A stretch of DNA of 64,000 nucleotides, taken from positions 1-64,000 of IMG/VR virus record IMGVR_UViG_3300027863_000020; one strand, 5' to 3'. This DNA is from a virus. Below, piece by piece: positions 35,938-62,220 of the stretch; within the stretch, counting starts at the first letter, position 1, and every line of letters starts with the position of its first letter. Made by a program: the position numbers and the translations under genes. The notes below the pieces were generated by a model. It was not told the origin of the DNA. It was given only the letters and a program-made list of their open reading frames with translations, and ran no database searches.

Positions 35938-35960
35938 TAAATAAGGATGGAGACTAATCT

Positions 35961-39511: not shown

Positions 39512-41065
39512 ATGAAACCATCTATCCCCGCTCCTCTTCAGCATCAGGCCATTGCCAAGAAGTATCTGGCAAAGAAGTGGTCTGAAGTCAAGTCCAAGAA
39601 GCTCTCCGTTTCTTCCATCATGGAAGAAGACCGCAAAGAGAATGTGGCACAGCTTCTCGAAAACCTTGCCAATCTACCCGGTTCTGCATTCTTGATGCAG
39701 GAACAGAATGGCTCTTCTGGCATTGACGGCTCTTCCTTGGGCAATGCTTCCATCAATCAGGGTATGTTCACTGCCGCCACCCTTGACCCCGATGCACACA
39801 AGTTCCGTCCGATTGAGATGGCACTGGTTCGTCGTGCTCAAGCCGATCTGTTCGCCTACAATCTCGCAGGTGTTCAAGCCATGAACGGCCCGGTCGGTCT
39901 GGCATACGCCCTCCGTTTCTTCTATGACGGCACTCGCACCGAAGCGGGCTTCCAGTCCGTTGGTCAGTACAGTGGTTGGAGCGGTAAGCCCGGTGTTGCG
40001 GGTTCCAATGGCGTGTTCAAGGTCACGAATGCGGGTGTGGTTGCCGACCTGAAGGCCGCTGGCCTGAATGGTGTCGATGCCAAGACCCTCATCAACATGA
40101 CCACTGGCGAATGGGCAGTGACTTGGACTGGTGCTTCGACCACCGTGTACACTGCGGGTACAGCCGTTGCGGGTTGGGTTGGTGGCGGTTGGGGTCAAGC
40201 CCTGTCCGTGACCGATGCTGAAAAGCTCGCAATCATGGCTCCTTCTGCGGGTACTGCTCCCCGTGACATCGGAACTGCGATTCCGAATGCCACTACTGGC
40301 GTGTCCCCTTACGCCATGCGTCAGCTCAAGATGTCCTTCGACAAGAAGAGCATTGATGCCCAAGACCGTATGCTTGGTGCTTCCTTCTCCGTCCAGTCGC
40401 TCTATGACATCCGCACCATGCAGGGTGTGGACATCGGGCGTGAAATGGTCAAGAAGCTCACCTATGAGTCTGGTGCGGAAATCGACCGTGAAATCCTCTG
40501 GAAGTGCAAGAACGCCGCCGTCTTCGGTGATGGTGGTCAGAATGGTGTGGTCGAAACCTTCGATCCTACCACCGTTTCCTCCACCTTCCTGTACGACAAG
40601 AAGGCCGCCATTGCCGACAAGTTGATTTCGCTCTCCAACGAAATCCACACTGCAACCTTGCAGGGTTCGGGCAACATCCTTGTTGCTTCTCCCCGTGTTT
40701 GCACGGCTCTTCAGACCATCCAGAACGGCTCCTTCAAGTCTTCTGGTGTGTTCAACTTCGACCAGAAGGGCTTGATCGAGGTCGGTACTCTTGATGGTCG
40801 CATCAAGGTCTATCGTGATCCTTGGGCATACTTCGATGGTGGCGTGGACTACGCTCTGGTCGCCTACAAGGGCGCAGGGATTGACGAAGCGGGTGTGCTC
40901 TATCACCCCTATATGCTCAATCTGGTGAACACTGCGGTTGCACAGGAAGACTTCGGTACTCGCATTGGCGTTCTCTCTCGCTATGCCATCACCGACAGCC
41001 TCTTGGGTAGCGGTCGCTACTACCGCTACATCGAATTCACTGGTCTGGCCGCTCTCGGTCTGTAA
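39512..41065 (+). CDS. gp23: major capsid protein
   Basis: KKW..V, AQLLEN, ALVRRA, GVQAMNGPVGLAYALR, EIDREI, GTLDGRIKVYRDP, YKG, RYA. Confidence 0.95.
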   Translation: MKPSIPAPLQHQAIAKKYLAKKWSEVKSKKLSVSSIMEEDRKENVAQLLENLANLPGSAFLMQEQNGSSGIDGSSLGNASINQGMFTAATLDPDAHKFRPIEMALVRRAQADLFAYNLAGVQAMNGPVGLAYALRFFYDGTRTEAGFQSVGQYSGWSGKPGVAGSNGVFKVTNAGVVADLKAAGLNGVDAKTLINMTTGEWAVTWTGASTTVYTAGTAVAGWVGGGWGQALSVTDAEKLAIMAPSAGTAPRDIGTAIPNATTGVSPYAMRQLKMSFDKKSIDAQDRMLGASFSVQSLYDIRTMQGVDIGREMVKKLTYESGAEIDREILWKCKNAAVFGDGGQNGVVETFDPTTVSSTFLYDKKAAIADKLISLSNEIHTATLQGSGNILVASPRVCTALQTIQNGSFKSSGVFNFDQKGLIEVGTLDGRIKVYRDPWAYFDGGVDYALVAYKGAGIDEAGVLYHPYMLNLVNTAVAQEDFGTRIGVLSRYAITDSLLGSGRYYRYIEFTGLAALGL

Positions 41066-43060: not shown

Positions 43061-43178
43061 ATTATGAATTCTCTGTTTTCTCTATTTCGGGTGTTCGTGT
43101 GGTTCCCAATCAAGTTGATAGGGGTCTGCGTGTTCATTGCGTATCAAGAATGGAGAAGCGAAATCAAGAGGTGGCAAT

Positions 43179-43901
43179 ATGGGAAACTTTGACCATCTAT
43201 CCAGACTTCCGAAGCCTTGGTTCAAGCGTCATGCTCCCAAGTATGACAATGAACGAAAATTGATTGCGGATATGGGAGCCGAAATGATTAACCATCATGG
43301 GGTTCTCTGTGAATACATCCTCATTTCAAACGATCCTTCGTATGACACTCTTTTTGGTGATGACCGAAATCGAAGGGTTATCCGAAAATTTCTTGTGATG
43401 GTTTATTTCGATCTTCCCGCTGAAGATGATCGTTGGAGTTCGTTTGGTATCGAAGGACTTGACAACTTCTCAATGATTGCAAGCATCAAGCATTTTTCGG
43501 AACGAGGGAAGCTAGATGTTTTACCAGAACAGGCGATCTATTCTCCCCGTGTTGGTGACATCATCAAGCCAATGTACAACAACTTCTATTATGAAGTGAC
43601 TGCGTGGTATGATGGTATGACATCCATGAACTTCTTGCAGATGGATAATGTGTATGAGATCGTTGTCAATAAGATGACCGATGACCACATCAATGATCCA
43701 GACAATCTCATCAATTCGTCAATCAGACCTCTTGGCGCACAAGACATCTTTGACGATACCGATTTCATCAATACCATGAATGGAAGCACGGCTATCATTC
43801 CAAACACATTCCCAGAGACAACGGGGAAAGGAAAGCCATCTCCATTGTATAAACCAAAGGCGGGTGAGAAAGCACCCAATGATCCATTCGGGGGTTTCTA
43901 A
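43179..43901 (+). CDS. gp14: neck protein gp14 (copy B)
   Basis: E.I..HG, YD.LFGDD, FGIE, PRVGD, YEVT, NDPFGGF; between gp13 and gp15. Confidence 0.85.
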   Translation: MGNFDHLSRLPKPWFKRHAPKYDNERKLIADMGAEMINHHGVLCEYILISNDPSYDTLFGDDRNRRVIRKFLVMVYFDLPAEDDRWSSFGIEGLDNFSMIASIKHFSERGKLDVLPEQAIYSPRVGDIIKPMYNNFYYEVTAWYDGMTSMNFLQMDNVYEIVVNKMTDDHINDPDNLINSSIRPLGAQDIFDDTDFINTMNGSTAIIPNTFPETTGKGKPSPLYKPKAGEKAPNDPFGGF

Positions 43902-44768
43902 ATGGCACATACCCAACAAGACGGTGTACAGGACGGTGATCGGTACAATGGGAAGGCTTGGTATTCTCCCAATGTCCTTCGTAGCATCACGCTTGGCCTT
44001 GCCGATATGTTCAACGACATCGTGGTTCGCAAATTCGCAAAGGACTTCATCACTGTAATCAAAGAGATTCCAGTTCCTCTCCATGTCGCTCCGAAGACGA
44101 AAGAATACTTCGAGAGAAAAGAAGATTATACATCGGATGGTGGGGGTCGCTATTACCAACAAGTCCCCGCATTGGCTCTTGTGTTCACTGGAATGAATTA
44201 TGCCCAACAACGGGTGATGGCTCCCAATGAAGAACGGGCGTGGCCTTATCCAGTCGATTCTTCGGTTGATCCCGATTACTTCAAGGACTATTCACCGACT
44301 CCGTATGACTTGACCTATGAGTTGAAGATCAGAACAGAGTCGATGGAAGATTACATCCAGATCATCGAACAAATCATTCCATTCTTCAATCCTTCATTGA
44401 CACTCCGAATGAAGGAAATCCCGTTCCTTGATGTTGCTCGAAATGTTCGTGTCAATCTGGACAATCCTTCCATCGAGATTCCACAGGAATTGACTGGAAG
44501 CGATATGAACCAGATCGAAGGAACATTGAGCTTGACTTGCGAAGCCTACCTGTATCGCCCAATCACGAATGCGATCTTCTTGAAGGAACTCTACAAATAC
44601 ATCTCCGTCATTGAGCTTGATGGTGACAAGAGCTTTGATCGAAGGATCAGAACACTCATGGCATTTTCGGAAGAAGAGATACCACAGGAAGCCGTCAATA
44701 AGAGGAAAACCCTCTATGGATATTGGTTGTACGAACTTTTGGATCAAGTCAATGATATTGGTGCATAA
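43902..44768 (+). CDS. gp15: tail sheath stabiliser / tail terminator
   Basis: MFNDIVV, VPL..APK, PTPYDLTYEL, QIIEQIIPFFNP, YLY.P. Confidence 0.9.
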   Translation: MAHTQQDGVQDGDRYNGKAWYSPNVLRSITLGLADMFNDIVVRKFAKDFITVIKEIPVPLHVAPKTKEYFERKEDYTSDGGGRYYQQVPALALVFTGMNYAQQRVMAPNEERAWPYPVDSSVDPDYFKDYSPTPYDLTYELKIRTESMEDYIQIIEQIIPFFNPSLTLRMKEIPFLDVARNVRVNLDNPSIEIPQELTGSDMNQIEGTLSLTCEAYLYRPITNAIFLKELYKYISVIELDGDKSFDRRIRTLMAFSEEEIPQEAVNKRKTLYGYWLYELLDQVNDIGA

Positions 44769-44776
44769 ATAGAAGT

Positions 44777-46317: not shown

Positions 46318-46947
46318 ATGCAGATTCATTCAGGGTTCAACGAGAACGCCCAACACTTCTTCGATTCTCTTGATGCCGACTTCGTGCCACAGAAACCCGT
46401 GGCAATCCCCGCCACAGCGTCCGTAAGAGCGTCTGAAGAGGCATGGGGTAGTTCGGGCGGGTTGCCACAGGAAACCCCGCCACAGCCCCCCGTACAGGCG
46501 AATACGGTGGCTCAATTGCCCGATCCCAAGACAGTCGAGCCAATTGATCGGAATTCGTATGACTTTCTGGACAGGTCGTATCGGGACAACATAACGACAA
46601 TTGAGCAAGCGATTTCACAGATCGAGGGCGAAATCATGCCCGGTGCTCATCCGAAGCTATTGGAATCGTATGCTCAATTACTGGAAAGACGGACAAGCGC
46701 AATCAATTCTTACACGGAATTCCTCAAATTGAGGCGAAAGTCCGAAATTGAGGAACGAAAAATTCGCATAGCCGAAAAGAAAGCGGGTATGGGTGTGAAG
46801 ACGGGTGATGCTCCGTCCAATGGGCTTACCATGAGTCCCCGTCAATTGGCAGAATTCATGCGTGAATTGGATGCTTCGAGGATGAGCGAAATTCCTGAAG
46901 CAGAAGAAGTACCTTCCGATGGGAAGCCCGATAGGAGCTTTGAGTAA
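46318..46947 (+). CDS. gp16: terminase small subunit (candidate)
   Basis: Directly upstream of and coupled to TerL; helical HPKLLESYAQLL segment. Confidence 0.55.
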   Translation: MQIHSGFNENAQHFFDSLDADFVPQKPVAIPATASVRASEEAWGSSGGLPQETPPQPPVQANTVAQLPDPKTVEPIDRNSYDFLDRSYRDNITTIEQAISQIEGEIMPGAHPKLLESYAQLLERRTSAINSYTEFLKLRRKSEIEERKIRIAEKKAGMGVKTGDAPSNGLTMSPRQLAEFMRELDASRMSEIPEAEEVPSDGKPDRSFE

Positions 46948-49913
46948 TGGCGTTTCGTGGCAATCCAAGACTCCGTGGTCATAGGGAGACATACGAGTAT
47001 TCCGAAGCAGAATTGACGGAATATCTCAAATGCCGTGCCGACTTTGAGTATTGGGCAGAGAAGTATGCCAAGATTGCCACTCTTGATGATGGTATTGTGA
47101 CCATCAAGCTACGGGGATACCAGAAGAGGATGATCCGAACGATCAAGAACCTTCCCAAACAGGGGAAGCGTGGAATGGTCGTATTGGCTCCCCGTCAATG
47201 TGGAAAGACCACGGGCATCTATCTGTACATCCTATGGCTAATCATTTTCTTCGAGTACAAGCGTGTTGCCATCATCGCCAACAAGGGCGCAAACGCCCGT
47301 AAGGTGATCCGTGACATCAAGCAAGCCTACGAATTTTTGCCACTCTGGATGCAACCCGGTGTCAAGGACGGTGGGTGGAGCAAGGGTTCGATTGAGCTTG
47401 AGAACGGTTCTATGGTGGTGTCTGGTTCGACTACGAGCGATTCGATCCGTGGTCAAACCTTCCATTGTTTGTCTGGTCGTAGTGAAGTAATCGTCCGTTT
47501 CGCAAATGGCGAAGTCTATAAAACGACAATGCGGGGGTTGAACGAACAGGATGAAAGTACATTCGTCAAATTAAACAATGTATATTTCGGTAATGACCGA
47601 CCTGTTTCTGAAAAACAAATATCTGGATTGGTACAACCGAATAATGCTTTCGGATTGGAGCGGTATGACCGAACTCCATCACATAATCCCACGAAGCCTT
47701 GGTGGTACGGATGCTCCGTCAAACCTGAAGCGATTGAGCGTAAAAGCTCATTTGGTAGCACATCATTTATTGACCAGAATAACCACGGGACAACATTTGC
47801 GGAAAATGCTATTCGCTTATGCTCAAATGATGTCGGGAAGACAGGGAAAACTTGTGGGGATGGACTGGAAATCCCAGAAAGTAGCCATTCGTCAATTGGC
47901 AGAGAGTCAATCGAAACGGATGAAAGGAGTTCGTTTGACAGAGGAATGGAAGAGACGGATTTCGGAATCCAACAAGGGAAAAACTTTGTCGAAAGAAACC
48001 AGAATCAGAATATCGGTTTCCAAGAAAGGAAATTTGAAGGGCGTTCCGAAGACGAACGAACACAAGCGGAAAATATCGGAAGCGAATACGGGGAATCCCC
48101 GTCCGTATGTTGTGAAAATGAACAAGAATCCAGAGAAGATTCGCAAGACAGCGGAAAAACATCGTGGAATGAAACGAAGCGAAAAATCACGAGAATTGAT
48201 GAGCCAACAACGGAAAGGGAAACCGTCTCCGTTGAAGGGGGTTCGTGGAATCATATCGGAAGAGACACGAGAGAAGATGCGTCAATCAGCAATTCTTCGA
48301 GTACAGCGTTTGGGGATTTGTGGGGACAAGACATTGAAGTCTTCACCGATGAAGGATGGAAACGATTTGAAGGGTGTGTAAACAATGGCTTTAAGAAAAC
48401 TTGGAGATTGAACCTATCAAATGGATTGACGATTGGTGCAACGGACAATCACGAATTCTCTACATACCGTGGGTGGGTTCGCCTTGATGCTCTTCAATCG
48501 GACGATATGGTCGATACAGTACATGGTCAATCCAATGTAGCATCAATCGAATATGTTGGCGAAGAGGATGTATATGATCTACTCAATGTAGAAGACATCC
48601 ATTGTTTCTACTCCAATGGAATAAAAGTCCATAATTGCGTGTACATTGACGAATACGCATTTATTCCAAAACACGCCGCCGATGACTTTATGAAGTCGGT
48701 TCTCCCGACTATCCTATCTGGAAAATCGGCTCAATTGTTTGCGACAAGTACCCCCAAGGGAATGAACCAGTTTTGGCGAATGTGGAGAAAGGCCGAAGCG
48801 GGTAAGGGTATGCTTGTACCCGTCAAGATCGACTATACCGAAGTTCCGAACTATACCAAGCCCGAATTCAAGAAGATGATTATTGAAACGGAAGGCTTGG
48901 CGACATGGAGACAGGAATTCGAGTGCAAGTTCCTTGGATCGTCCAAGACTCTAATCAATGCAGAATGCCTTGAAGAAATGGCACTGAAGCTACTCCCAGA
49001 ACCAATCGTCCGTCATTTCGATGACAAGTTCAAGATATGGGAGAAGCCTTCCAAGGGCGCAAGCTACATCCTTGCCGTGGACAGTGGAAAGGGTGTCGGT
49101 GGTGATTACTCCATCGTACAGGTTCTCCGAATCTATGGAATGCACAAAGCAGAACAGGTTGCGGTCTTTGCCGACAACTATACCCCAATCAACGACTTTG
49201 CCCAAATCTGCGTGTCAATCGCACGGTATTACAACAATTCGGAAATCATTGTCGAGAACAACGATCTTGGTGGTGTCCTTTGCGAACGAATCTTTGAACA
49301 ACTTGGATATGACCGTCTGGTTTCCTATGAGAAGGATTACTTCGGTGTTCGCTCGAACAAGAAGAACAAGGCCATTGGCAATATCGCCCTACGAGAATAC
49401 ATCGAGTCGAATTGGGTCAAGCTCAATGATGAAGAGACCGTAAAGGAATTTTCGTTCTACGAAGAAGTCCGTGACAATGTGTTCCAAGCAATCGAGGGCG
49501 AACATGATGACCGTGTGATGAGCCTTCTTTGGGCATTGTTCTGGTTGAAATCCAACTCCGAATTCGAGGATGAGGGTATCAATCAGATCAATGCACGGTT
49601 CCGAATCCATGACAAGGAATTGGGATACGAGGATACTGGAATGGGTGACGGGGATGCCGACTGGATGGGTGGCGGTGGTTCCACGGGTGACTGGTTGGGT
49701 GATTCCGATTCCCGTCAATCTGCGTCAATTTTCGGAAAAAGTGCCACAGCCGACAACCTATTCTCTGGTTTTGGCGGTGGGGACGATGACTTTTTTGGGT
49801 CTATGAAGGTAGGTGCGAATTCACCGAACCACAATTCAATGAGATTTGAGAACGGTGGGTACAGGCATTCAAACGGTGCTTTGGCGTTTGAGGATGATAT
49901 ACCGTCTCTCTGA
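46947..49913 (+). CDS. gp17: terminase large subunit, intein-containing
   Basis: LRGYQ, APRQCGKTT, LPLWMQ, ELENGS, IRG/[intein]/CVYIDEYAF Walker B, STPKGMN, QEFEC, AVD..KG.GGDYS, HDDRVM. Confidence 0.95.
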   Translation: MAFRGNPRLRGHRETYEYSEAELTEYLKCRADFEYWAEKYAKIATLDDGIVTIKLRGYQKRMIRTIKNLPKQGKRGMVVLAPRQCGKTTGIYLYILWLIIFFEYKRVAIIANKGANARKVIRDIKQAYEFLPLWMQPGVKDGGWSKGSIELENGSMVVSGSTTSDSIRGQTFHCLSGRSEVIVRFANGEVYKTTMRGLNEQDESTFVKLNNVYFGNDRPVSEKQISGLVQPNNAFGLERYDRTPSHNPTKPWWYGCSVKPEAIERKSSFGSTSFIDQNNHGTTFAENAIRLCSNDVGKTGKTCGDGLEIPESSHSSIGRESIETDERSSFDRGMEETDFGIQQGKNFVERNQNQNIGFQERKFEGRSEDERTQAENIGSEYGESPSVCCENEQESREDSQDSGKTSWNETKRKITRIDEPTTERETVSVEGGSWNHIGRDTREDASISNSSSTAFGDLWGQDIEVFTDEGWKRFEGCVNNGFKKTWRLNLSNGLTIGATDNHEFSTYRGWVRLDALQSDDMVDTVHGQSNVASIEYVGEEDVYDLLNVEDIHCFYSNGIKVHNCVYIDEYAFIPKHAADDFMKSVLPTILSGKSAQLFATSTPKGMNQFWRMWRKAEAGKGMLVPVKIDYTEVPNYTKPEFKKMIIETEGLATWRQEFECKFLGSSKTLINAECLEEMALKLLPEPIVRHFDDKFKIWEKPSKGASYILAVDSGKGVGGDYSIVQVLRIYGMHKAEQVAVFADNYTPINDFAQICVSIARYYNNSEIIVENNDLGGVLCERIFEQLGYDRLVSYEKDYFGVRSNKKNKAIGNIALREYIESNWVKLNDEETVKEFSFYEEVRDNVFQAIEGEHDDRVMSLLWALFWLKSNSEFEDEGINQINARFRIHDKELGYEDTGMGDGDADWMGGGGSTGDWLGDSDSRQSASIFGKSATADNLFSGFGGGDDDFFGSMKVGANSPNHNSMRFENGGYRHSNGALAFEDDIPSL
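47466..48635 (+). mobile_element. intein (390 aa) in TerL, immediately before Walker B
   Basis: Starts CLSGRSEV, block B ATDNHEF, block F VYDLLNV, ends IKVHN with +1 Cys; removing it gives IRGQTFH-CVYIDEYAF. Confidence 0.92.
47578..48381 (+). CDS. HNH homing endonuclease with NUMOD3 repeats, nested out-of-frame (+1) inside the intein
   Basis: NKYLDWY, ELHHIIPRSLGGTDAPSNL...AHLVAH, five NUMOD3-like repeats (EEWKRRISESNKGK, KETRIRISVSKKG, NEHKRKISEANTG, SEKSRELMSQQRKGK, SEETREKMRQS). Confidence 0.88.
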   Translation: MYISVMTDLFLKNKYLDWYNRIMLSDWSGMTELHHIIPRSLGGTDAPSNLKRLSVKAHLVAHHLLTRITTGQHLRKMLFAYAQMMSGRQGKLVGMDWKSQKVAIRQLAESQSKRMKGVRLTEEWKRRISESNKGKTLSKETRIRISVSKKGNLKGVPKTNEHKRKISEANTGNPRPYVVKMNKNPEKIRKTAEKHRGMKRSEKSRELMSQQRKGKPSPLKGVRGIISEETREKMRQSAILRVQRLGICGDKTLKSSPMKDGNDLKGV

Positions 49914-49975: not shown

Positions 49976-51961
49976 ATGGCAGTCACCATTCGTAAAGAAG
50001 ATGCGCCCGGCACTTATCTGGCAGAGAAGGATGAGTCTGGTGGTCGTGTCCTTCCCGCTTCCACCCGTGGAGTTGCCGTAGTCGGCTACTTCGCAAAAGG
50101 CCCGGTGAATCGGAGAGTCCGTCTTCGTTCACAGGATGAACTCATTTCCGTCTTCGGTGCATCCGACATTGCCAAGTTTGGCTATGCTTGGTGGGTCGCA
50201 TACGAAGCACTCACCGAATCCGATGAAGTCTATGTGATCCGTGTTGTCAATGACACAGCGGTCGCAAATGACAAGTTGCTCTATGCGGGACTTGCCTACA
50301 ATGCGGGATGGGGTACTACCTTTGCGGGTGTTGCCGAACTCCCCACAAGCTCCGTGGTCTCCCATGAAAGTCTCCCTCTTGGAAAGGGCTATTCTCCCGA
50401 CAAGATCGTCTCCCTTGATGGTATGACCGTTGCCAACGATGGCTTCACTCTCGCAAGTGCAGTACCCGGTCTCGAAGGAACCCTGATTGGTTTCGAGATT
50501 GTCGGTGCGAAGGCCAACATCACAACCATCACTCCGACTTGGAGCGCAACCCCGTCCACCCCCGTTCTCAACGATCTCTACGAAGACACGAATGGAAACC
50601 TTTGGCGCATCACGAAGAGCGGTGCGGTTGGAACCACTCAACCCGCATGGCCTACCACTCCGTATTTCGGACAGCAAGTGACCGATGGCAATGCCGTCTG
50701 GACTTCCACAACCGAAATCCGTGAAAAGGATGTCCTTGGTCTTTCCGCAAAGTATCCTACGATGTGGTGGAAGATTCTTCGCCTCCGTGTTTACCAGAAG
50801 CCGAATTCTTCCGTGACTACCTTCACTGGTCTCCCCATTGTCGATGAATTCTTCTTCACCCTTGACGATTCCGTGACCACTGGTGGCGTGGCTATGCAAG
50901 CCAATCGCATCATCAATGGAAAGGGTCGCAATCTGGTCTATATCCGTGTCGGCTCCGACTTTTCCGATGGCACGATTGACATGAGCGAAGGTGTGTTTGA
51001 TGGTTCCGAATTCAACACCAGTGGGATCAAAGCCCTTCTTGGTGGTCAGGTCGGTGTCAATTCCATCACCCATACCTCTGGTCTCGCTCAAATTGGAAGC
51101 GGTTGGGAACTCTTCAAGGTTCGTGAGTATTCTTCTTGGAATCTCGCAGACACTTGTGTTGATCCCGATTTGGATGCCACTTTCAGCGTGTCCCAGAAGC
51201 TCAATGATGTGGTCGCAACCCGCATGGGTGCGATGTACACCGCTCAAGTGTCCAAAGTCACCGACATCCGAAAGGAACAGGTGGAAATCACAGCAGAACC
51301 CGCCTTTGCGGGTCTCAAGGATGCGTCCTATGGTGCGTTCTATGCGGGTTTCGACCGTAGGCGTGATCCGATCAGCGGTCGCCTTGTGTGGCTCCCCAAG
51401 TCCATCGAAGGTCTCCGTGCTATCCTGAAGGCGGGTCGTATGTTCAACGATGCACAAGCCCCTGCGGGTGCGGTCGTTGCGGTCTGTAAGGGCATTGAGC
51501 AGAATGTCGAGTTCTCCAAGGTCGATTGCGGATACCTCTACGCCAAGAACATCAATACCTCCATCAAGAAGCCCGAAGGCAATGTGATGTGGGGTCAGAA
51601 GACCGCACAGCGTACCGAATCCAAGCGTGATCGCATCAATGTAAGGCGTATCCTCAACAAGATCGGTCTCGATCTCGAACAGATTGGTGATAGCCTGATT
51701 TGGTCGAACATCTCCCCCGCTTTGATGGAGCGTCTGTACACAGCAGTTGATCGCAACCTTGAACAGCGTTCGGGTGAGGGGTATTTCGATACCTCCACGA
51801 AGGAAGCGGGTAAGGGTTATCGTGTCAAGGTCATGCGGAACCCCGACAACAAGAACCGTCTCGATGTCCGTGTGGAAGTCATCCCGATTGACACTCTGGA
51901 ATGGGTCGGTGTCGAAATCGTTGTGACCGATGCGGGTGTTGAATCCGTGACCGAAGTGTAA
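49976..51961 (+). CDS. gp18: tail sheath protein
   Basis: APG.Y..E.D, G.F.KGPV, APAG, LY..NIN, WGQKT, DRINVRR. Confidence 0.93.
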   Translation: MAVTIRKEDAPGTYLAEKDESGGRVLPASTRGVAVVGYFAKGPVNRRVRLRSQDELISVFGASDIAKFGYAWWVAYEALTESDEVYVIRVVNDTAVANDKLLYAGLAYNAGWGTTFAGVAELPTSSVVSHESLPLGKGYSPDKIVSLDGMTVANDGFTLASAVPGLEGTLIGFEIVGAKANITTITPTWSATPSTPVLNDLYEDTNGNLWRITKSGAVGTTQPAWPTTPYFGQQVTDGNAVWTSTTEIREKDVLGLSAKYPTMWWKILRLRVYQKPNSSVTTFTGLPIVDEFFFTLDDSVTTGGVAMQANRIINGKGRNLVYIRVGSDFSDGTIDMSEGVFDGSEFNTSGIKALLGGQVGVNSITHTSGLAQIGSGWELFKVREYSSWNLADTCVDPDLDATFSVSQKLNDVVATRMGAMYTAQVSKVTDIRKEQVEITAEPAFAGLKDASYGAFYAGFDRRRDPISGRLVWLPKSIEGLRAILKAGRMFNDAQAPAGAVVAVCKGIEQNVEFSKVDCGYLYAKNINTSIKKPEGNVMWGQKTAQRTESKRDRINVRRILNKIGLDLEQIGDSLIWSNISPALMERLYTAVDRNLEQRSGEGYFDTSTKEAGKGYRVKVMRNPDNKNRLDVRVEVIPIDTLEWVGVEIVVTDAGVESVTEV

Positions 51962-52316: not shown

Positions 52317-55193
52317 ATGCCATTGAAGATCAGTGAGAAGAAGAAAGAGGAATTGAAGAAGCAGATCATCGAAATGCGGAAGAAGCGTTCCGCAAGTCAC
52401 GATGTCACTGCGATGATTGACGGTTTCAAGGGGGTCGATGCCTCCGACAAGCGTTATGAGAAAATCATCGACCTGTACATTCGTCTTGGTGGTGGTCAAT
52501 ACGGTGCTACGAAGGAAAAGATCATTGCCAAGCTCAATGAAGAATCCAAGAAGTCAGCAGAAGCCCGTAAGGATTTGAAATCCACCACTTCGATGGCGAA
52601 GTACGGGATTGACGGTGCGTTCGATGGCTTGCTCATGGAAATCGCAAAGAATCCACAGCTTGACGATCTCATGGCATTCGAGGATGAAAACTTCCCCGAA
52701 ATCAATCTCTCCGTATTCTCCGACTTCTGTACACAAATCCGATTGGATTATGGATCGTTCCTTTTCAATGGGTCGGTAATCAACAATGGCTACAACGAGA
52801 AGCCCCGTACTCCCGAATTCGTGCTCTGGTCTCCCAAGGGTGGCGCAATCAATTCCAAATGGGATTTGATGGTCAAGAAAGGTCGCATTCCCAACAAGCC
52901 CGAATATCAACCCAAGACCGCATGGTGTGATCCCCATGCTATGATGGCGTTCAATGTCGATCTTCTCAAGTCGTTGATGATTAAGGCATACTACACGGGT
53001 GTCACCGCCAAGGATTCCGCACGGGGAAAGAAGTACAAGTCCAATGGTGGAAAATTCCCAGACTATTGGTGGCCTGTCGAGTACATCATCATTCACGAAG
53101 TTCTGCATTTCAAGCAGGGCGACTTCTACAATGTCGAGCAAATGAGTTCCTTGATTGACGAACTCAAGTCGAATGCCAAAAAGCCATTCCACAAGACCAA
53201 GTTTGCCCACACGATTTCCAACATCACCCAAGACCTCATCAATAACTGGATGATTTCCGAAAAGTTGGGACTTCCGATCTTGACTACTGGATGGGTGTCT
53301 GAAAAGCTCAATATGCTAACCCTCAAGGAAGAGTCCCTGAAGACGGGCGAACCTCCCCTTATCGTGGGTATGCGTATTGTGATGAATGACCTCATTTCGC
53401 TCAAGAAGGAAGACCCCGAAGAGGCCAAGAACGCTATGGAGAATCAGCAAGATCAGCACCACAACGACTCCGAAGATTCGGAAAGTGGTGACGATCAAGG
53501 CGAAGGTGGCGAAGGCCAAGGTCAGGGCGAAGGCCAACAAAGCGATGGAATCGAAGATGATTCCGAAGATGGTGATGGTCAGGGCGAAGGCCAAGGCCAA
53601 GACGGTCAGGAAGGTGGTCAGGAAGGCGAAGAACAGGACGGGCAAGGTTCTGGTTCTGGTGAAGACAAAGATGGTCAGGAAGGCGATAAAAAGGGCAAGG
53701 GAAAAGGAAAGGGTGTTCCCTCCGACAAGGACATTGACGATATGGAAGACCTTGCCGATGAAGTGAGCCAAGAGAAGCCCGAATTGGGCGATGAGACCAA
53801 GAACGATGAGGGTCAAACGAAGACCAATCAGCAAGCCAATACCGCCCAAAAGAAAAAGAAGAAGATTGACGATGCTTTGGACAAGTCCAATGACAAGAAG
53901 GGCGAACCACAGGAAGGTGATGGAAAGGACGGTAAGGGGGAAACCGATTCTGGTAGCGATTCCACCGATTCGTCCACCGACCCATCCGAAACCGAAAGTG
54001 GCGAAAACACTGGAAACTGGCAAGACAAGGTATCGAAAGAAACCGATGATGTCGAGTTCGATCCTACGAATATGCCACAGGGCGAAACCGATCAGGAAGC
54101 AGAACAAGCAAGCGAAGATGCTTTCAATGATGTCGATGACGCATGGGACAATATGAACGAGGGTCTGGACAAGATTTCCGATCAGCTTGACAAGGTTGCC
54201 GACACCGAATCCAAGATGCGTACCCGTGAGGAAATCGAAGAAGCGGAGAAGAAGCGCAAGGAAGAACGAGCGGAAGCGGCACGGTCGATTGGACAGCAAT
54301 TGTCCAAGGAATCAGCGGTCATTTCAGCGGATTCGGCACTCTCTTGGAAGACCATGATTAACGAGTTCTTCGTCAATTACAAGATCAAGCAAGAGACCTA
54401 TGCCCGTATGTCTTCCCAGACCATTGCCAATATCACGGCCTCCGATGGAAAGGGCGCAATTGCGATTGATCCCGGCATCATCAAGGAAGATTCCAAGCAG
54501 AAAGTCCGTGTTGTGTTCTGCTTCGATGTCTCTGGCTCCGTGTGGAACCAGATTGGAAAGGCCAACCTTCAGCTTTGGAATTATGTCAAGAAGTTCGGAA
54601 ACCGAATTGACGAATGTTGGTTCATGCGCTTCAGTTCCGAAAACAACTACGACATTCACCTTCTCTCCGATACCAAGAACTTCTCTGGTGTGAAATTGAC
54701 ACCTTCTGGAAAGCGGAAGATCATGGAAGCGGGTAAGGGGAACAAGGGAGAATTCAAACTGGATGTAGAAGACATCTATCCAAGGCCAAGGAAGTTCTCT
54801 GCGATCATGTCGGGCGAAGGCGGGAAACAGACATACAATGCCGATGAGGATGAATCTTCTGCGATCCCCACGGGTGGAACCGACTTCACCAACAAGATTC
54901 TCAATATGTTGGAAGCCTTCTATCGTAGGGGTTGTGGTATCATCTTCTTCACGGACTCCGATTGTGCGGGTGGGCAAAATCTTGAGTCGATGAAGACCAT
55001 GCTATTCGACACCTTTGGCGTTCCTCCCCGCAAGAAATCAATCGGTGTGTGTATGACACAGGCCAAGGACTATGTTGCTATGGTCAAGGGTCTTGGAACC
55101 GAAAGCTCTGCGAATGGAGCATGGCGAATCACCTATTTCACCAACGAAGCCTATACCGAAGCGGTTGGCTTTGACGATAGCGACACTAACTAA
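52317..55193 (+). CDS. HEXXH metallopeptidase-like plus VWA domain protein (DUF2201-like architecture)
   Basis: IIHEVLH...QDLINN, long acidic Gly/Gln linker, VWA MIDAS FDVSGS...GGTDF...FFTD; late promoter at 52279. Confidence 0.8.
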   Translation: MPLKISEKKKEELKKQIIEMRKKRSASHDVTAMIDGFKGVDASDKRYEKIIDLYIRLGGGQYGATKEKIIAKLNEESKKSAEARKDLKSTTSMAKYGIDGAFDGLLMEIAKNPQLDDLMAFEDENFPEINLSVFSDFCTQIRLDYGSFLFNGSVINNGYNEKPRTPEFVLWSPKGGAINSKWDLMVKKGRIPNKPEYQPKTAWCDPHAMMAFNVDLLKSLMIKAYYTGVTAKDSARGKKYKSNGGKFPDYWWPVEYIIIHEVLHFKQGDFYNVEQMSSLIDELKSNAKKPFHKTKFAHTISNITQDLINNWMISEKLGLPILTTGWVSEKLNMLTLKEESLKTGEPPLIVGMRIVMNDLISLKKEDPEEAKNAMENQQDQHHNDSEDSESGDDQGEGGEGQGQGEGQQSDGIEDDSEDGDGQGEGQGQDGQEGGQEGEEQDGQGSGSGEDKDGQEGDKKGKGKGKGVPSDKDIDDMEDLADEVSQEKPELGDETKNDEGQTKTNQQANTAQKKKKKIDDALDKSNDKKGEPQEGDGKDGKGETDSGSDSTDSSTDPSETESGENTGNWQDKVSKETDDVEFDPTNMPQGETDQEAEQASEDAFNDVDDAWDNMNEGLDKISDQLDKVADTESKMRTREEIEEAEKKRKEERAEAARSIGQQLSKESAVISADSALSWKTMINEFFVNYKIKQETYARMSSQTIANITASDGKGAIAIDPGIIKEDSKQKVRVVFCFDVSGSVWNQIGKANLQLWNYVKKFGNRIDECWFMRFSSENNYDIHLLSDTKNFSGVKLTPSGKRKIMEAGKGNKGEFKLDVEDIYPRPRKFSAIMSGEGGKQTYNADEDESSAIPTGGTDFTNKILNMLEAFYRRGCGIIFFTDSDCAGGQNLESMKTMLFDTFGVPPRKKSIGVCMTQAKDYVAMVKGLGTESSANGAWRITYFTNEAYTEAVGFDDSDTN

Positions 55194-55513: not shown

Positions 55514-55533
55514 TCGAAATTGACGAATCAATC

Positions 55534-55559
55534 AAGTCCCCCAAATCGGGGGACTTTTT
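55534..55559 (+). terminator. intrinsic terminator
   Basis: AAGTCCCCC/GGGGGACTT stem followed by T-run. Confidence 0.8.
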
Positions 55560-55684
55560 GTTTTTATGCGAAAAACGGCAAACTAACCACGGACGATCTT
55601 CTTCAATGTCAATCTATACCTCTTTCTGAAACCATAAATAGGAATAGCGAGAGCTTGAACTTCATAAACGAAAAGAGGTCATAC

Positions 55685-58600
55685 ATGAAGAAACTGTACC
55701 CAATCACCAAGTTCGTCATCGGTGCTATCCTTGAGGAAGGAGCCGATGGGGGCTATACCGACAAAACCCTGATTTTCCCGCCCCTATTGGATGGCTCCCC
55801 TTCGGATGCAATCATCGGGCAACTGGAAGCATCCGCTCAAAAAGACGGTGATCGGGTCAATGAGAACGCCTTGGCATTGACGATGCTTGGAACTGGTATC
55901 CTCAATATCGAGGATGTCATCAAGTACACGAAATGCTTTGAGGGGAAGATCAATTCGACCCGTGCATCCACTCTCAATCGTGTGAAGGTCAATCTTTTCA
56001 AGAATCCTTCCCTGTACAAGCCATATCCCGGTCAGGAAAAGTATGCCAAATGGGTGGGCTATTCCGACCGAAGTGCCGAAACCAACGGAAACACCTATCG
56101 TATCGAGCGTGATCCCGCCAATCCCGAAAAGGTGCGTTTCCACAAGGTCAATCGTGGTGTGGCGGTTGCCGTCAATGCCGACATCGACAAGGTTCTGAAT
56201 GGCGAAGCGTATGCCCAAGAGGGATTGAGCATTCCGTCCCCTGTCGCAACCCCCTCCGTCCCCCCTCCCGCCCAAGAAACCAAGATTGACGCTCCCGAAG
56301 TCAAGGAAACCCCCGTCACTCCCGAACCGACTTCTGCGCCTACCCCCGCTGAAACAGTGCCTAGCGGTGGTGTCGAAGCATCCGCTCAAGAGGCTCTTGC
56401 CAATGCTCAACAAGCGGAACGCATTGCAACGGGCAATCCCGCCATTCCTACGGCCTCTGTACCGTCTTCCGAAGCCGTCCCTTCCACCAACGAGCCTGTC
56501 GCTCCCGAAGCCACAGACATCTCCAAAGCGGGTGTCAATCAGGTCAAGGATGAGACACAGACCATCAACAACGATCCAGAACCACAGAACACGGGCGACC
56601 AGTCTGGTGTTGGTGATACCCAAGTGTCTTCCGATGAAGCCCAAGCCCCCGCAGTCGGTGGTGGTGCTACTGGAACTGGAATGGGTGCGGTGAAGGCTAT
56701 TGCCGAATCTGCGAAATTCCAAGAAGACATTTCCAAATTGATGTCCCGCTACAAGGCGGGTGAGCGTCTGAAGCAGAAGTACAACCAGAATGTGAGCGAC
56801 CTGTTCTCCGACAAGAAGATGGTGAAGATCAAGAACATCTCCCAGAATTTTGTCGATAAGCTCAAGGTTGTCATGGTGGACATGAAGGAAAAGGCAACCA
56901 AGGGCAAGAATGCCAAGATGGGTATGCTTCTCACTGGTGATCCCGGTGTTGGTAAGACCTCTTTCATCCGCTCCCTTGCCGATGCAGTCGGTCTTCCGCT
57001 CATCACAATCGAAGCTCCCCATATCACCAAAGAACACCTCATCAATATCCCATTCCTTGTGAAAGACCCCTTCATTCCAGAAGGTGTCCAGAAAATCGCA
57101 ACTGGAAAAGACCATGATCCGAACCTGAATGATGACAGGCACGATTGGCGCATTGAGAATGCGGAATCGAACATCGTGACCGAAATGATTAAGGCACGGG
57201 GCAAGAAGAAGAACAAGTTTACCGATGAATTCTGGATGAAGAAGATTCGTACTTCTCCGATCATTGACAAGGCGTTCGACCAAGACCCGAACCTCTTGCA
57301 GACCGCCCAAGTCATCCGTCAATTCTTCTCTTGCATCTTCTTTGTGGATGAATTCTTCCGCACGGACGATCCTAGCGTCCAGAACATCCTCCGTGCTATC
57401 ATCAATGGAAAGGTTGGAAACGACAACCTTCCAGACGATGTGTACTGCATCTATGCCGCCAACATGAAGAATGACGATGGTTCTTTCTCCAAGATTCCGT
57501 CCAATATGCAGTTTGGTGGTATGCTCAATTTCGACATGGCTACCGCTGAAGATTGGGGTAAGCAGTATTTCAATGTCCAGTACACGGAAAATGTCGCAAT
57601 GGCACGGGAACTGAAGGCCAAGGTCGAATCCAATACCGCAACCGATGAAGAGCGGGAAATGTGGAATTCTTCTGAAAAGACCCGCAACCTTGCCAACATG
57701 ACCGTATCCATCAATCAGGATTTGACCAATGCGATTACCGATGCTATCGGGGATCAGCTTGGCAAAGTCACCGATGGAAAGGGTCTTCGCCTGTCCCCCC
57801 GTAGGCTTGAGCAGATCGTGTTGTCGATCAATGCGATTGCCGATGGTATTGGAGATGGAAAGTATCCGTTCCTCAATGCCGAAAACATCAATGCGTTCCT
57901 CCGTGTCCAGTTCCGTGACTACCTCTCTGGTGCGGTCAATGAGGATGTCTTCAAGGCGGTCTCCAAGGCAGTTCTTGAGAAGTTGGGCATCCCACAGACC
58001 GATAAGGTCACGCATCCGTCCAATTGGGAAGATAGCATGAAGCTCCAATTGTTCCTCAAGGACAAACTTGGTTCCTTCCGTAGCTATCCCACGGTGGTTG
58101 CGGGTGAGCCCGGTATTGGAAAGACGCAGATTATGGAGTCTGCTCTTGGCTCAATGAACATCCAAATGATTACCATTGAAGCCCACACATTGACAAAGGC
58201 ATCCGTCATCGGTATGCCGATTGTCAAGACCATGAGCGAAGATGAAGTCAGGCTCCGTAAGGAAACGACCGACAAGTATCTCTCCAAGAGTTCCCAAATC
58301 TCCAAGGAAATGATGGATCAGGTCATTGTCGAATCTGGTATGGACTCCAAGGTTGTGACCGACTTTATGAGCAAGTTGGATGTCGGACGCTATACCGAAT
58401 TCGCTCCACCCGCACTCTATCGCTACATCATGTTCGAGTATTTCCGCTACCTCTCCGATTATGCACGGTATGATCGGGAAGAACAGCAGGGAGTCGCCAA
58501 GAACGACCGCAAAGGCCGTCCCCGTCCAGAAGGCAAGTACAAGGTTGCTCTGTTCCTTGACGAATTGAGCCGTGTCGAAGATACCTCCATCTTCAATGCA

Positions 58601-59884
58601 CTCCGTCTGGTTCTTCTGGAAGGCAAGTTTGGCGATGGCAACAAGCTCCCAGACGATATGCTCATCATTGGCGCACTCAATCCGACCGACCGTGGAGAGA
58701 ATGTGCGTGAATTGACCGACCATATGAAGGATGTGCTCGACATCGTTCCCGCTGAAGCTAATTGGCCTGAATGGTACAAGTGGCTCCAATCCCATGCCCA
58801 AGACCTGTATTCCGAACAGGTTGGTCATTACAACAAGATCGTTGAAAAGGGAACGGTGGAACTTGAAGAAGGCGATTCCGTCCCCGCAATCATCGTTGCC
58901 TCCGATATGTACCCTCTCGGAATCAGTCCGTTCAATTTCGCAGAAGCGGTTGCCGAAGTCCTCAATTATGTGGCATCCACCCACATGAATGTTGGCAAGT
59001 TCGGAGATCAACCAGAAACCCTCAAACGGTTCCCAATGATCGGAACCCCCGCAGTCAATTTCTATTGGCAGGGTATGTCCCCAACCGACAAGGCACTGTA
59101 TCACAACCCACGAAACCTTGCATTGACATTCGATGCGATGGTATCGAGGGCTTTCAGCGATGCGAAGGTGTCAATCGGTGGTGAAGAACTGGATGGAAAC
59201 TTCCTTCTCTTCAAGTTGTTCGAGGTTGAACCCGAAGATCGTCCACCCGCAATGATTGAATCCTTCTTCGGTGTGGTGCGCCAAGGCTTCCTCAATGCCT
59301 ACGAAGCCCAAATGCACGGTCAATTGACCAATATGCAAGAGGTCTCGGAGAATTCCTACAAGGCTTGTTTGGCGAACTTCACGCAGGGCTTGATGGATGA
59401 TGGCACTACGACCATTCTGGAACAGGTGCTTGTTGGAAAGGAATCGAAGCTCGAAGTCGAGAATTTCGATGCCTTCATCAAGAAGAATGGCCTGTCGGTC
59501 AATTCAATCAAGAACTATGCGTATGCCGAAAAGATCAGCAACGATGGCGAAGTCATTGTTGCCGAATTCAATGCGGTGTACGAAGAAGCAATCAAGAACC
59601 CCCCTAGCGGTGGGTACACGATGCTTATGCGCTTGATGTGGATGGTTGCTACCCAGATCGAAGAAAAGCTCCAAACATTCGAGGGAACCGAAAACAAGAA
59701 GGTCACTCTGGATGTGGTGTCTGGAATTCGCACTGGTCTGAAGAAGAGCCTCATCAATTGGTACGGGGCGATCTTTGAACCGCTCTTCACCGATGAGCCT
59801 TCCGTCAAGACCATCATGGAAGACGAAAAGTTCGAGGCGACCTTCACCGATCCGAACATTGAATACTTGAAGGATTATGTCTAA
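55685..59884 (+). CDS. giant tandem AAA+ ATPase (two MoxR/dynein-like modules)
   Basis: GDPGVGKT...FVDEFFR...AAN...SPRR and GEPGIGKT...FLDELSR...ALNP; Pro/Ala/Thr-rich linker; late promoter at 55633. Confidence 0.85.
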   Translation: MKKLYPITKFVIGAILEEGADGGYTDKTLIFPPLLDGSPSDAIIGQLEASAQKDGDRVNENALALTMLGTGILNIEDVIKYTKCFEGKINSTRASTLNRVKVNLFKNPSLYKPYPGQEKYAKWVGYSDRSAETNGNTYRIERDPANPEKVRFHKVNRGVAVAVNADIDKVLNGEAYAQEGLSIPSPVATPSVPPPAQETKIDAPEVKETPVTPEPTSAPTPAETVPSGGVEASAQEALANAQQAERIATGNPAIPTASVPSSEAVPSTNEPVAPEATDISKAGVNQVKDETQTINNDPEPQNTGDQSGVGDTQVSSDEAQAPAVGGGATGTGMGAVKAIAESAKFQEDISKLMSRYKAGERLKQKYNQNVSDLFSDKKMVKIKNISQNFVDKLKVVMVDMKEKATKGKNAKMGMLLTGDPGVGKTSFIRSLADAVGLPLITIEAPHITKEHLINIPFLVKDPFIPEGVQKIATGKDHDPNLNDDRHDWRIENAESNIVTEMIKARGKKKNKFTDEFWMKKIRTSPIIDKAFDQDPNLLQTAQVIRQFFSCIFFVDEFFRTDDPSVQNILRAIINGKVGNDNLPDDVYCIYAANMKNDDGSFSKIPSNMQFGGMLNFDMATAEDWGKQYFNVQYTENVAMARELKAKVESNTATDEEREMWNSSEKTRNLANMTVSINQDLTNAITDAIGDQLGKVTDGKGLRLSPRRLEQIVLSINAIADGIGDGKYPFLNAENINAFLRVQFRDYLSGAVNEDVFKAVSKAVLEKLGIPQTDKVTHPSNWEDSMKLQLFLKDKLGSFRSYPTVVAGEPGIGKTQIMESALGSMNIQMITIEAHTLTKASVIGMPIVKTMSEDEVRLRKETTDKYLSKSSQISKEMMDQVIVESGMDSKVVTDFMSKLDVGRYTEFAPPALYRYIMFEYFRYLSDYARYDREEQQGVAKNDRKGRPRPEGKYKVALFLDELSRVEDTSIFNALRLVLLEGKFGDGNKLPDDMLIIGALNPTDRGENVRELTDHMKDVLDIVPAEANWPEWYKWLQSHAQDLYSEQVGHYNKIVEKGTVELEEGDSVPAIIVASDMYPLGISPFNFAEAVAEVLNYVASTHMNVGKFGDQPETLKRFPMIGTPAVNFYWQGMSPTDKALYHNPRNLALTFDAMVSRAFSDAKVSIGGEELDGNFLLFKLFEVEPEDRPPAMIESFFGVVRQGFLNAYEAQMHGQLTNMQEVSENSYKACLANFTQGLMDDGTTTILEQVLVGKESKLEVENFDAFIKKNGLSVNSIKNYAYAEKISNDGEVIVAEFNAVYEEAIKNPPSGGYTMLMRLMWMVATQIEEKLQTFEGTENKKVTLDVVSGIRTGLKKSLINWYGAIFEPLFTDEPSVKTIMEDEKFEATFTDPNIEYLKDYV

Positions 59885-59921: not shown

Positions 59922-59955
59922 ACCTTTTGCATAAATAGAATAAAGGAGTCCAACT

Positions 59956-61175: not shown

Positions 61176-62201
61176 ATGCCAACCGTTGATAAACTTACAC
61201 AATCCGACATTGACACCATCAATAAGCTGAAGGCTGGTAAGATCAGTGGCTTATTGCCCCGTTTAACCCCCTCCGTGCTCATTGCAGGGCAGAATGTGGT
61301 TGCGGTCGATACAAGCCTCAAGCCAGACCTATTCATTGCCAAAGAGACCAAGAAACGGAAGATCGTGCTCCATGCCACGGTCGGGCTTCTTGCGTCCGAC
61401 TTACCGACATTGACAAGCCAGAAGCAAATGACTACTCATTACATCGTAGCCCGTGATGGGACGATCATTGAGGTCTATCCTCCGAAGTATTGGGCATTTC
61501 ATCTTGGTAAAGGTGCGATTGGTGGAAATGGTGCGATGTCCCAAGAGTCAATCGCAATCGAAATCTCCAATTACGGGCCGCTCGAACTCAAGAACAAGGG
61601 AGACAAGGCCAACCCCGCAGACGATAAGTTCTACACGGTCTATGGAAGCCTGTATGGTTCGGGAAACGAGAAGGTGGACACGAAGGGATTTGTCGGTGGA
61701 AGCAATCCTAGCGTCACCAAGCTACTCCATGCGTACAGAGGGTACAAATACTATGCCTCAATCACCGAAGCCCAATACAGTGCTCTAAACGCCCTTGTGA
61801 CCGCATTGTGCAACAAGTTCGCTATTCCATTGACGGCAATCGAATACGAAAACCGATTCAAGGTATTCGAGAACGACCAGAAAGCAAAGGATTTCCAAGG
61901 TATCTGCTCCCATGTCAATTTCAGACCTAGTGGTAAATGGGACTTGAGTGCTTGGTGCGATTGGGACAAGATTACCACTCAATCCGATTCAATCGAATGG
62001 GAAGAAGCCTCATCCACCGAAGAACCAGAAGGCAACCCAGAGGGTATCCGTGTTCTCAAGGAAGAGAAGTTCGATGGAGCGGATGACAATTGGGAGTACA
62101 CCGATACCATCGACCCGATTTCTGGTGCGGTGATTGAAACAGCAGAGAACAAGAAGATGCGGATATTGAGGGAAAATAACCCCTTGATTTGTGCGTTCTA
62201 A
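61176..62201 (+). CDS. N-acetylmuramoyl-L-alanine amidase (Amidase_2), putative endolysin
   Basis: IVLHAT, HYIVARDG, AFH.G, SIAIE, TEAQY.AL, SH....KWD. Confidence 0.85.
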   Translation: MPTVDKLTQSDIDTINKLKAGKISGLLPRLTPSVLIAGQNVVAVDTSLKPDLFIAKETKKRKIVLHATVGLLASDLPTLTSQKQMTTHYIVARDGTIIEVYPPKYWAFHLGKGAIGGNGAMSQESIAIEISNYGPLELKNKGDKANPADDKFYTVYGSLYGSGNEKVDTKGFVGGSNPSVTKLLHAYRGYKYYASITEAQYSALNALVTALCNKFAIPLTAIEYENRFKVFENDQKAKDFQGICSHVNFRPSGKWDLSAWCDWDKITTQSDSIEWEEASSTEEPEGNPEGIRVLKEEKFDGADDNWEYTDTIDPISGAVIETAENKKMRILRENNPLICAF

Positions 62202-62220
62202 ATACGATTGAGGATCAATT

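Follow-up and report, generated by a model that had tools for sequence, protein, structure and literature searches.

An HNH homing-endonuclease gene overprinted in a second reading frame of the large-terminase intein of T4-like phages

Endonuclease genes lying antisense to, or out of frame with, the intein that harbours them have already been published in 1998, 2025 and 2026, among them an antisense LAGLIDADG endonuclease noted in inteins (Gorbalenya, 1998) and an out-of-frame endonuclease reported in a cyanobacterial dnaX intein (Phillips et al., 2026, bioRxiv 10.64898/2026.09.14.751524). Here we describe an intein of the large terminase subunit (TerL) of a T4-like phage, encoded in the first 64 kb (hereafter the window) of the 150,817-bp IMG/VR virus record IMGVR_UViG_3300027863_000020 (completeness 100%, CheckV), inside which an HNH-NUMOD3 endonuclease gene is nested on the same strand in the +1 frame. 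The placement given by a first-pass annotation of the sequence (intein at 47466-48635, nuclease open reading frame, ORF, at 47578-48381 in the +1 frame) holds in every respect when compared with the ORFs and with the point at which the Pfam terminase profile is cut. The literature searched contains no case of an HNH-NUMOD3 gene read in the +1 frame and placed between blocks A and B of a TerL intein in T4-like phages. The actinophage inteins described in 2025, some of them in TerL, are likewise contiguous, carry a same-strand endonuclease ORF in another frame while the intein frame remains open, and have been attributed to a free-standing endonuclease gene that invaded an intein, the origin also proposed for the present case; their endonuclease, however, is endonuclease VII-like, lies in "frame 3" and occupies the usual endonuclease region, HNH being listed only as an in-frame domain, whereas in the T4-like myoviruses considered here an HNH and NUMOD3 gene occupies the interval between blocks A and B and is read in the +1 frame. 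The DnaX intein also has a middle portion double-coding for a homing endonuclease, a sporadic spread and a proposed secondary invasion of a mini-intein, but its host gene is the cellular dnaX and both the endonuclease and its position are different. A same-strand overprinted HNH gene with a stop-free host frame is also known from the ShiLan insertion (Arsenault et al., 2025, PMC11855218), which differs in residing within a phage's DNA methylase gene with no intein splicing domain, the loop being thought to be retained in the mature protein. In family and domain order the nested enzyme resembles the HNH-NUMOD3 homing endonucleases that T4-like phages encode as free-standing genes (PHROG 655), yet these lie between genes, while the window HNH is enclosed in an intein, with a second frame constraining it.

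The closest parallel regarding the host gene is offered by the fractured gp17 loci, gp17 being the T4 counterpart of TerL. In a Lake Gatun myovirus the C part of the gp17 intein holds every motif but N1 (Dassa et al., 2009, PMC2677866), and in the atypically split TerL inteins the N-terminal piece (IntN) measures 37 aa in GOS-TerL and 25 aa in AceL-TerL, with a C part (IntC) of 104-122 aa (PMC11766414). The window intein shares with them the host gene, the break after N1 and a short N part (28 structured aa), its HNH gene starting 37 aa into the intein; it also shares a free-standing type of endonuclease gene at the break, with the 3′ end overlapping the start of the C part. Block A alone lies upstream of the insert and block B downstream, the insert thus occupying the A/B interval, whereas intein endonucleases usually lie between blocks B and F. 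In a sequence search of the PDB the intein matched mini-inteins and the Cat-TerL IntC (6dsl_B, E 7.7e-4, intein residues 288-389). The same break point and the Cat-TerL match identify the window intein as the contiguous counterpart of the split TerL inteins. Unlike the fractured loci, which consist of two ORFs and splice in trans, the window has one uninterrupted frame of 988 codons and a contiguous intein, and the endonucleases reported at fractured loci are GIY-YIG or Vsr-like rather than HNH.

A stop codon arises in the intein frame wherever T is the last base of an HNH codon and the next codon begins with AA, AG or GA, and the first-pass annotation had read the open intein frame as a sign of selection. 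Synonymous shuffling of the HNH codons bore this out: no intein-frame stop was observed over the HNH ORF, as compared with a mean of 13.6 in the shuffles, 19.2 under the codon usage of neighbouring genes and 16.4 when codon order was shuffled, and none of the 20,000 trials of each of these three types reached zero. In the window copy, T was found in third position before 0 of 80 at-risk codons vs. 55 of 186 codons elsewhere [(1-55/186)^80 = 6.6e-13], and the comparison with homologues that had been suggested as a check extended the pattern to 22 nested loci (0/1890 at-risk junctions vs. 1107/3505 elsewhere). The decisive control was provided by 20 non-nested homologous nucleases (free-standing, split or fused), in which T occurred at 583 of 1831 at-risk junctions (32%), and each of which would carry 17-38 stops per 230 codons in that frame. 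Only the nested copies avoid such stops.

Which of the two frames is under selection for its sequence can be read from the substitutions among relatives, whose periodicity matches the codons of the HNH: the differences amounted to 0.44/0.37/0.61 at its codon positions 1/2/3, the signature of purifying selection in that phase. Over the same DNA, relatives share 40-63% of the amino acids encoded in the HNH frame, as compared with 17-33% of those in the intein frame, and the few conserved residues of the latter (frame 0; Q51, I52, E236 and E257) overlie conserved HNH motifs when the codons are read by eye. Selection acts on the protein sequence of the HNH and, in the intein frame, just to forbid stops. 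An additional selection for a hydrophilic frame-0 loop was considered and rejected, its hydropathy being equal to that of a stop-free synonymous null (z about 0); loop hydrophilicity is therefore a by-product of a K/R/E-rich nuclease. In 12 of 12 loci, which are not independent of each other, the loop's net charge lay slightly on the negative side of the null. Overall, these comparative tests support the initial view of a mini-intein that holds, in another frame, an HNH gene of free-standing type and is kept open by selection, and the arrangement is a real, strongly selected and widespread double-coding intein.

The HNH ORF runs from ATG to TAA between +1-frame stops at 47572 and 48379, over a span in which frame 0 has no stop and frame +2 about 30, and a second in-frame ATG at 47593 is level with the start of the relatives in the alignment. 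The product matched PHROG 655 "homing endonuclease" (E 4.7e-31) and, by tblastn, annotated phage homing endonucleases with 30-34% identity over 72-88% of the protein. NUMOD3 scored 53.6 bits in the window copy (Pfam cut-off 20.4) and was found in all 22 nested relatives, HNH in 17 of the 22 at E <= 0.01; the catalytic residues H34/H35, N49 and H58/H62 are invariant in the 22 HNH sequences. The first-pass annotation had counted five NUMOD3 units, of which the domain itself was recovered while the number stood in part, since Pfam scores two stretches alone and the structural model has five or six short helical repeats. The AlphaFold2 model of the nuclease reached a mean pLDDT (predicted local distance difference test) of 80.8, with values above 90 for residues 10-130; fold searches with it (Foldseek against the PDB, VIA-align wide) returned short HNH-core or generic helical matches and no clear relative.

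The intein looks intact, judging from its motifs and its predicted fold. The Pfam Terminase_6N profile is cut exactly at its borders (profile positions 2-98 end at 47465, positions 99-211 resume at 48636), block B reads T-D-N-H (48441-48452), block F reads VYDL, and the terminal His-Asn is followed by Cys at 48636; among 14 aligned inteins C1, T326, H329, V369-Y370-D371 and H389-N390 are invariant or nearly so, as is the Cys at +1, which is invariant. AlphaFold2 modelled a HINT fold from residues 1-28 and 286-390 around a loop of 257 residues (29-285), the latter with pLDDT below 50 and devoid of secondary structure. With this model Foldseek gave 56 PDB matches at E <= 0.001, headed by mini-inteins, the best being 4o1r (E 7e-9, template modelling score to target 0.67), and the structured part also matched NpuDnaB, gp41-1, VidaL (6vgv) and Cat (6dsl). 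The frame-0 reading of the insert had no PHROG family match, and its net acidic, disordered character agrees with the motif-free acidic stretch first noticed there. Along most of the overlap a folded nuclease is encoded over a disordered intein, while the relation is reversed over the last 20 nuclease codons, where a folded intein is encoded over a disordered nuclease tail: at 48321-48381 the intein residues from 286 onward have pLDDT above 90 and HNH residues 247-267 below 50 (Table 1). As 46947-49913 is the sole TerL locus of the 150.8-kb genome, which is rated complete, the phage needs its TerL spliced, which suggests that the window intein does splice. An intron in place of the intein finds no support, since Rfam detected no group I intron.

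Table 1. Coordinates of the TerL gene, its intein and the nested nuclease gene in the window.
Feature	Coordinates	Strand	Basis
TerL (T4 gp17-type) precursor ORF, 988 aa	46947..49913	+	ORF list; Pfam Terminase_6N and Terminase_6C
N-extein, 173 aa, C-terminal end GQTFH	46947..47465	+	Terminase_6N positions 2-98; alignment with intein-less relatives
Class-1 intein, 390 aa	47466..48635	+	Cys1, terminal H-N, Cys+1 at 48636; motifs, HINT fold
Structured N-terminal HINT piece, residues 1-28, block A	47466..47549	+	pLDDT 77-94; two strands and a helix
Insert as read in frame 0, 257 residues (29-285), hydrophilic, net acidic, predicted disordered	47550..48320	+	AlphaFold2
7-codon mini-ORF, HNH frame, TAA 3 nt before the HNH ATG	47551..47574	+	Sequence
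Leader 5′ of the HNH start, family-conserved nucleotide motif AAyTCrTCTArA	47559..47577	+	Alignment of 22 upstream regions
HNH and NUMOD3 homing-endonuclease gene, 267 aa, +1 frame	47578..48381	+	Pfam, PHROG, tblastn, AlphaFold2
True double-coding stretch, first strands of the C-part HINT over the disordered HNH tail	48321..48381	+	AlphaFold2
Structured C-terminal HINT part, residues 286-390, blocks B, F and G	48321..48635	+	pLDDT 86-97
C-extein, beginning Cys-Val-Tyr-Ile-Asp-Glu (Walker B)	48636..49913	+	Terminase_6N restart; alignment

When TerL was used as a protein query, seven relatives with an intein were recovered whose alignment extends across the insert, and the DNA was compared for five of them (loci L001-L005, TerL 29-48% identical to that of the window), all of which contain an HNH ORF of 245-265 codons in the same +1 frame. 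Scanning IMG/VR with the HNH alignment yielded 80 loci, 79 of them also with TerL, and the nested contiguous layout was present in about 31 of the 80; blastn of TerL against GenBank phages and intein peptide patterns against IMG/VR gave no match. One relative (P0003, TerL 68% identical) carries this intein at the identical site but lacks the insert of about 260 residues, according to the protein comparison, and together with the more than 30 diverged relatives sharing the layout it upholds the reading of the locus as a mini-intein with an HNH gene inside. In L006, whose flanking genes are 87-88% identical in nucleotides to those of L001, there is no intein and Ala replaces Cys at +1. The two are more similar over the 110 nt or so downstream of the junction (2 mismatches), which is not decisive for co-conversion because this stretch is the conserved Walker B region.

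Other loci exhibit alternative layouts of the same components. In the fused same-frame type (L028-L030) N-extein, IntN and HNH form one ORF, its stop being immediately followed by the ATG of IntC and C-extein; in L028 (1124-3900), as well as in L029 and L030, the TerL in two parts has an IntN of about 45 aa and a full HNH-NUMOD3, and if such halves trans-splice the nuclease would be freed as an IntN fusion. In the fused shifted-frame type (e.g., L045) IntC and C-extein are in another frame, overlapping the end of the first ORF. L053 and L055 are fractured, with a free-standing nuclease between the halves of an atypically split intein, and in L047 a free-standing nuclease lies just upstream of an intein-less TerL. 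The nucleases of these three loci (L047:2578-3267, L055:2500-3411 and L053:1890-2639) have other N-terminal domains, GIY-YIG-like by eye in L047 and L055, and end in the NUMOD3 tail known from the HNH enzymes, its nearly invariant motif NKNPEKIRKTAEKHRGMKRS included; the shared tail suggests a TerL-targeting DNA-binding module. The split intein of L053 (1292-3100) is displaced downstream by a few TerL residues (between SLLY and DEF), a second insertion site near Walker B. The C-extein match is located 1.3-1.9 kb past the intein end in L033 (4013-5868) and L075 (3623-4923), and intein-like sequence was seen near the TerL ORF start at the beginning of the host ORFs of L020 and L033; a second or third insertion is probable in part of these TerL genes.

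In light of these results, the locus is very probably a composite selfish element residing in the essential TerL gene, made of a class-1 intein placed directly before Walker B and of an HNH-NUMOD3 gene nested in its +1 frame. Ribosomes translating TerL would cross the nuclease gene in frame 0 and produce a disordered, hydrophilic loop of 257 residues, while HINT residues 1-28 and 286-390 would assemble as do those of GOS-TerL and AceL-TerL, which are naturally split; the intein would then splice, and the loop would be thrown away with it. The nuclease would be made separately, by internal initiation at the ATG at 47578 or at 47593 on the late TerL message, or in many relatives perhaps from late-promoter-like or Shine-Dalgarno signals of its own. 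It would finally cut or nick the intein-less TerL of co-infecting relatives, whose repair would copy intein and nuclease together, a homing step to which the family membership of the enzyme and the presence/absence polymorphism between L001 and L006 point.

The presumed separate translation of the HNH is the weakest link of this scheme. AAGGAG ribosome-binding sites are used by other genes of the phage, and neither the ATG at 47578 nor that at 47593 is preceded by a ribosome-binding site. Among the 22 relatives, Shine-Dalgarno-like motifs with the right spacing occur within the last 20 nt in 8, and TATAAATA within 60 nt upstream in 6, the background being 0.005 per 60 nt; all 22 HNH ORFs begin with ATG near a conserved NKY motif. 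The host codon phase in which the leader motif AAyTCrTCTArA stands differs between the window clade and the other clade (alignment read by eye), which suggests a signal at the DNA or RNA level. The mini-ORF is present just as first described, and equivalents were seen by eye in the upstream sequences of L001 and L002 and not in the other clade; its ATG and TAA fall in the conserved leader, which also encodes intein residues, and the TAA arises from a TTA codon, used for none of the 41 Leu codons of the exteins. ATAAATA or CTAAATA stands directly upstream of several late genes of the window (44760-44776, 35940-35960, 59930-59955 and 62195-62220), and these motifs are probably T4-type late promoters of the phage; the HNH leader has merely a degenerate version of them.

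Several observations weigh against the composite selfish element as proposed. Pfam HNH is weak in the window copy (19.6 bits, just below the gathering cut-off of 21.4), and neither a Shine-Dalgarno nor a TATAAATA motif is found within 60 nt upstream of its start. Identities of extein, HINT and HNH co-vary among relatives (r about 0.7), indicating that the element is mostly inherited vertically, and the HNH tree settles neither a single origin of the nested form nor the direction of change. Moreover, the scheme does not account for how a stop-free frame of about 250 codons first came to lie over a foreign gene, given the 17-38 stops that relatives have there; the reverse change is easy, one frameshift being enough to make a nested form fused or split. 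Part of these data would fit an HNH that is functional without homing, in an element that is fixed and vertically inherited, the enzyme having another role (e.g., degrading the DNA of competitors) or being barely expressed and slowly decaying in the window lineage: the co-variation and the lack of recognisable start signals in the window copy favour it, as does the weaker codon periodicity of the window-L001 pair (0.38/0.35/0.53) relative to other pairs. We consider this unlikely, as the ORF is intact and its catalytic residues are invariant in 22 of 22 copies, the site is empty in L006, a close relative of L001, and HNH identity exceeds that of the exteins between the deepest TerL clades (about 41-53% vs. 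30-38% for the C-extein). In addition, the HNH of the window and L001 groups with those of L008 and L011 and not with L002 (moderate support), which suggests occasional transfer.

The missing ribosome-binding site could also be accommodated if ribosomes translating TerL shifted into the +1 frame and so entered the HNH, with a product fused as N-extein-IntN-HNH, similar to that of L028-L030 and about 15 further loci, in which the nuclease is in frame with N-extein and IntN. This is very improbable: the +1-frame stop at 47572-47574, 3 nt before the ATG, leaves no upstream room for a shift, no slippery site is apparent in the aligned upstream regions, for which no systematic slippery-site search was made, and both the start signals of the relatives (8 and 6 of 22) and the invariable ATG near NKY argue for initiation at the ORF itself. 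An artefact, i.e., a chance ORF or two compensating assembly frameshifts concealing an in-frame HNH intein, could be invoked for a single metagenomic contig and is hardly credible here. A truly in-frame HNH would leave about 14 stops in frame 0 where none is present, so that compensating sequencing errors are ruled out; the same frame relation recurs in more than 30 independent assemblies, and the ORF has its own ATG and stop together with its match to the homing-endonuclease family.

A more tentative extension, possible and still clearly short of probable, is that the atypically split TerL inteins descend directly from the nested one, with the NUMOD3 tail carrying NKNPEKIRKTAEKHRGMKRS as a TerL-site module swapped between HNH and GIY-YIG enzymes. 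If the precursor reading is true, a single frameshift ahead of the HNH start would join IntN and nuclease into one ORF and split the gene in two, resulting in the L028 type, after which stop avoidance would relax, and the family would constitute a stepwise record of gene fracture. If the module is indeed swapped, the recipient nucleases would be those sitting in, between or next to TerL.

The TerL gene belongs to a T4-like late module that includes a gp23-type capsid protein (39512-41065), a neck protein (43137-43901) and gp15 (43902-44768). The TerL tail (49550-49913, + strand), of about 120 residues, is Gly/Asp-rich and absent from the more distant of the aligned TerL relatives. In the same late module, a 1454-aa ORF with a TTG start (55520-59884, + strand) has two AAA/P-loop motifs about 390 residues apart; neither a motif of a second intein by eye nor an intein family among its Pfam matches was found. 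Very long antisense ORFs face large + strand genes at 55784-58048 (754 aa), 50129-51457 (442 aa), 39674-40906 (410 aa) and 53316-54299 (327 aa), all on the - strand; those of 754, 442 and 327 aa had no match in a Pfam scan, and they are probably an effect of codon composition, though the 754-aa one is striking.

The nested intein represents a clean natural case in which one frame is selected for its sequence and the other for openness alone, with an all-or-none signature (0/1890 vs. 32%). Nested nucleases of this kind are systematically missed, because gene callers report TerL alone here. The HINT fold appears to tolerate a disordered loop of 257 residues at the very break point of AceL-TerL, GOS-TerL and Cat-TerL, and contiguous natural relatives are thereby offered for the short-IntN split inteins used in protein labelling. 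Empty, mini-intein, nested, fused, split and free-standing states are all found around one gene, which makes the model of Dassa et al., whereby an endonuclease invades an intein and the gene then breaks, testable with real intermediates.

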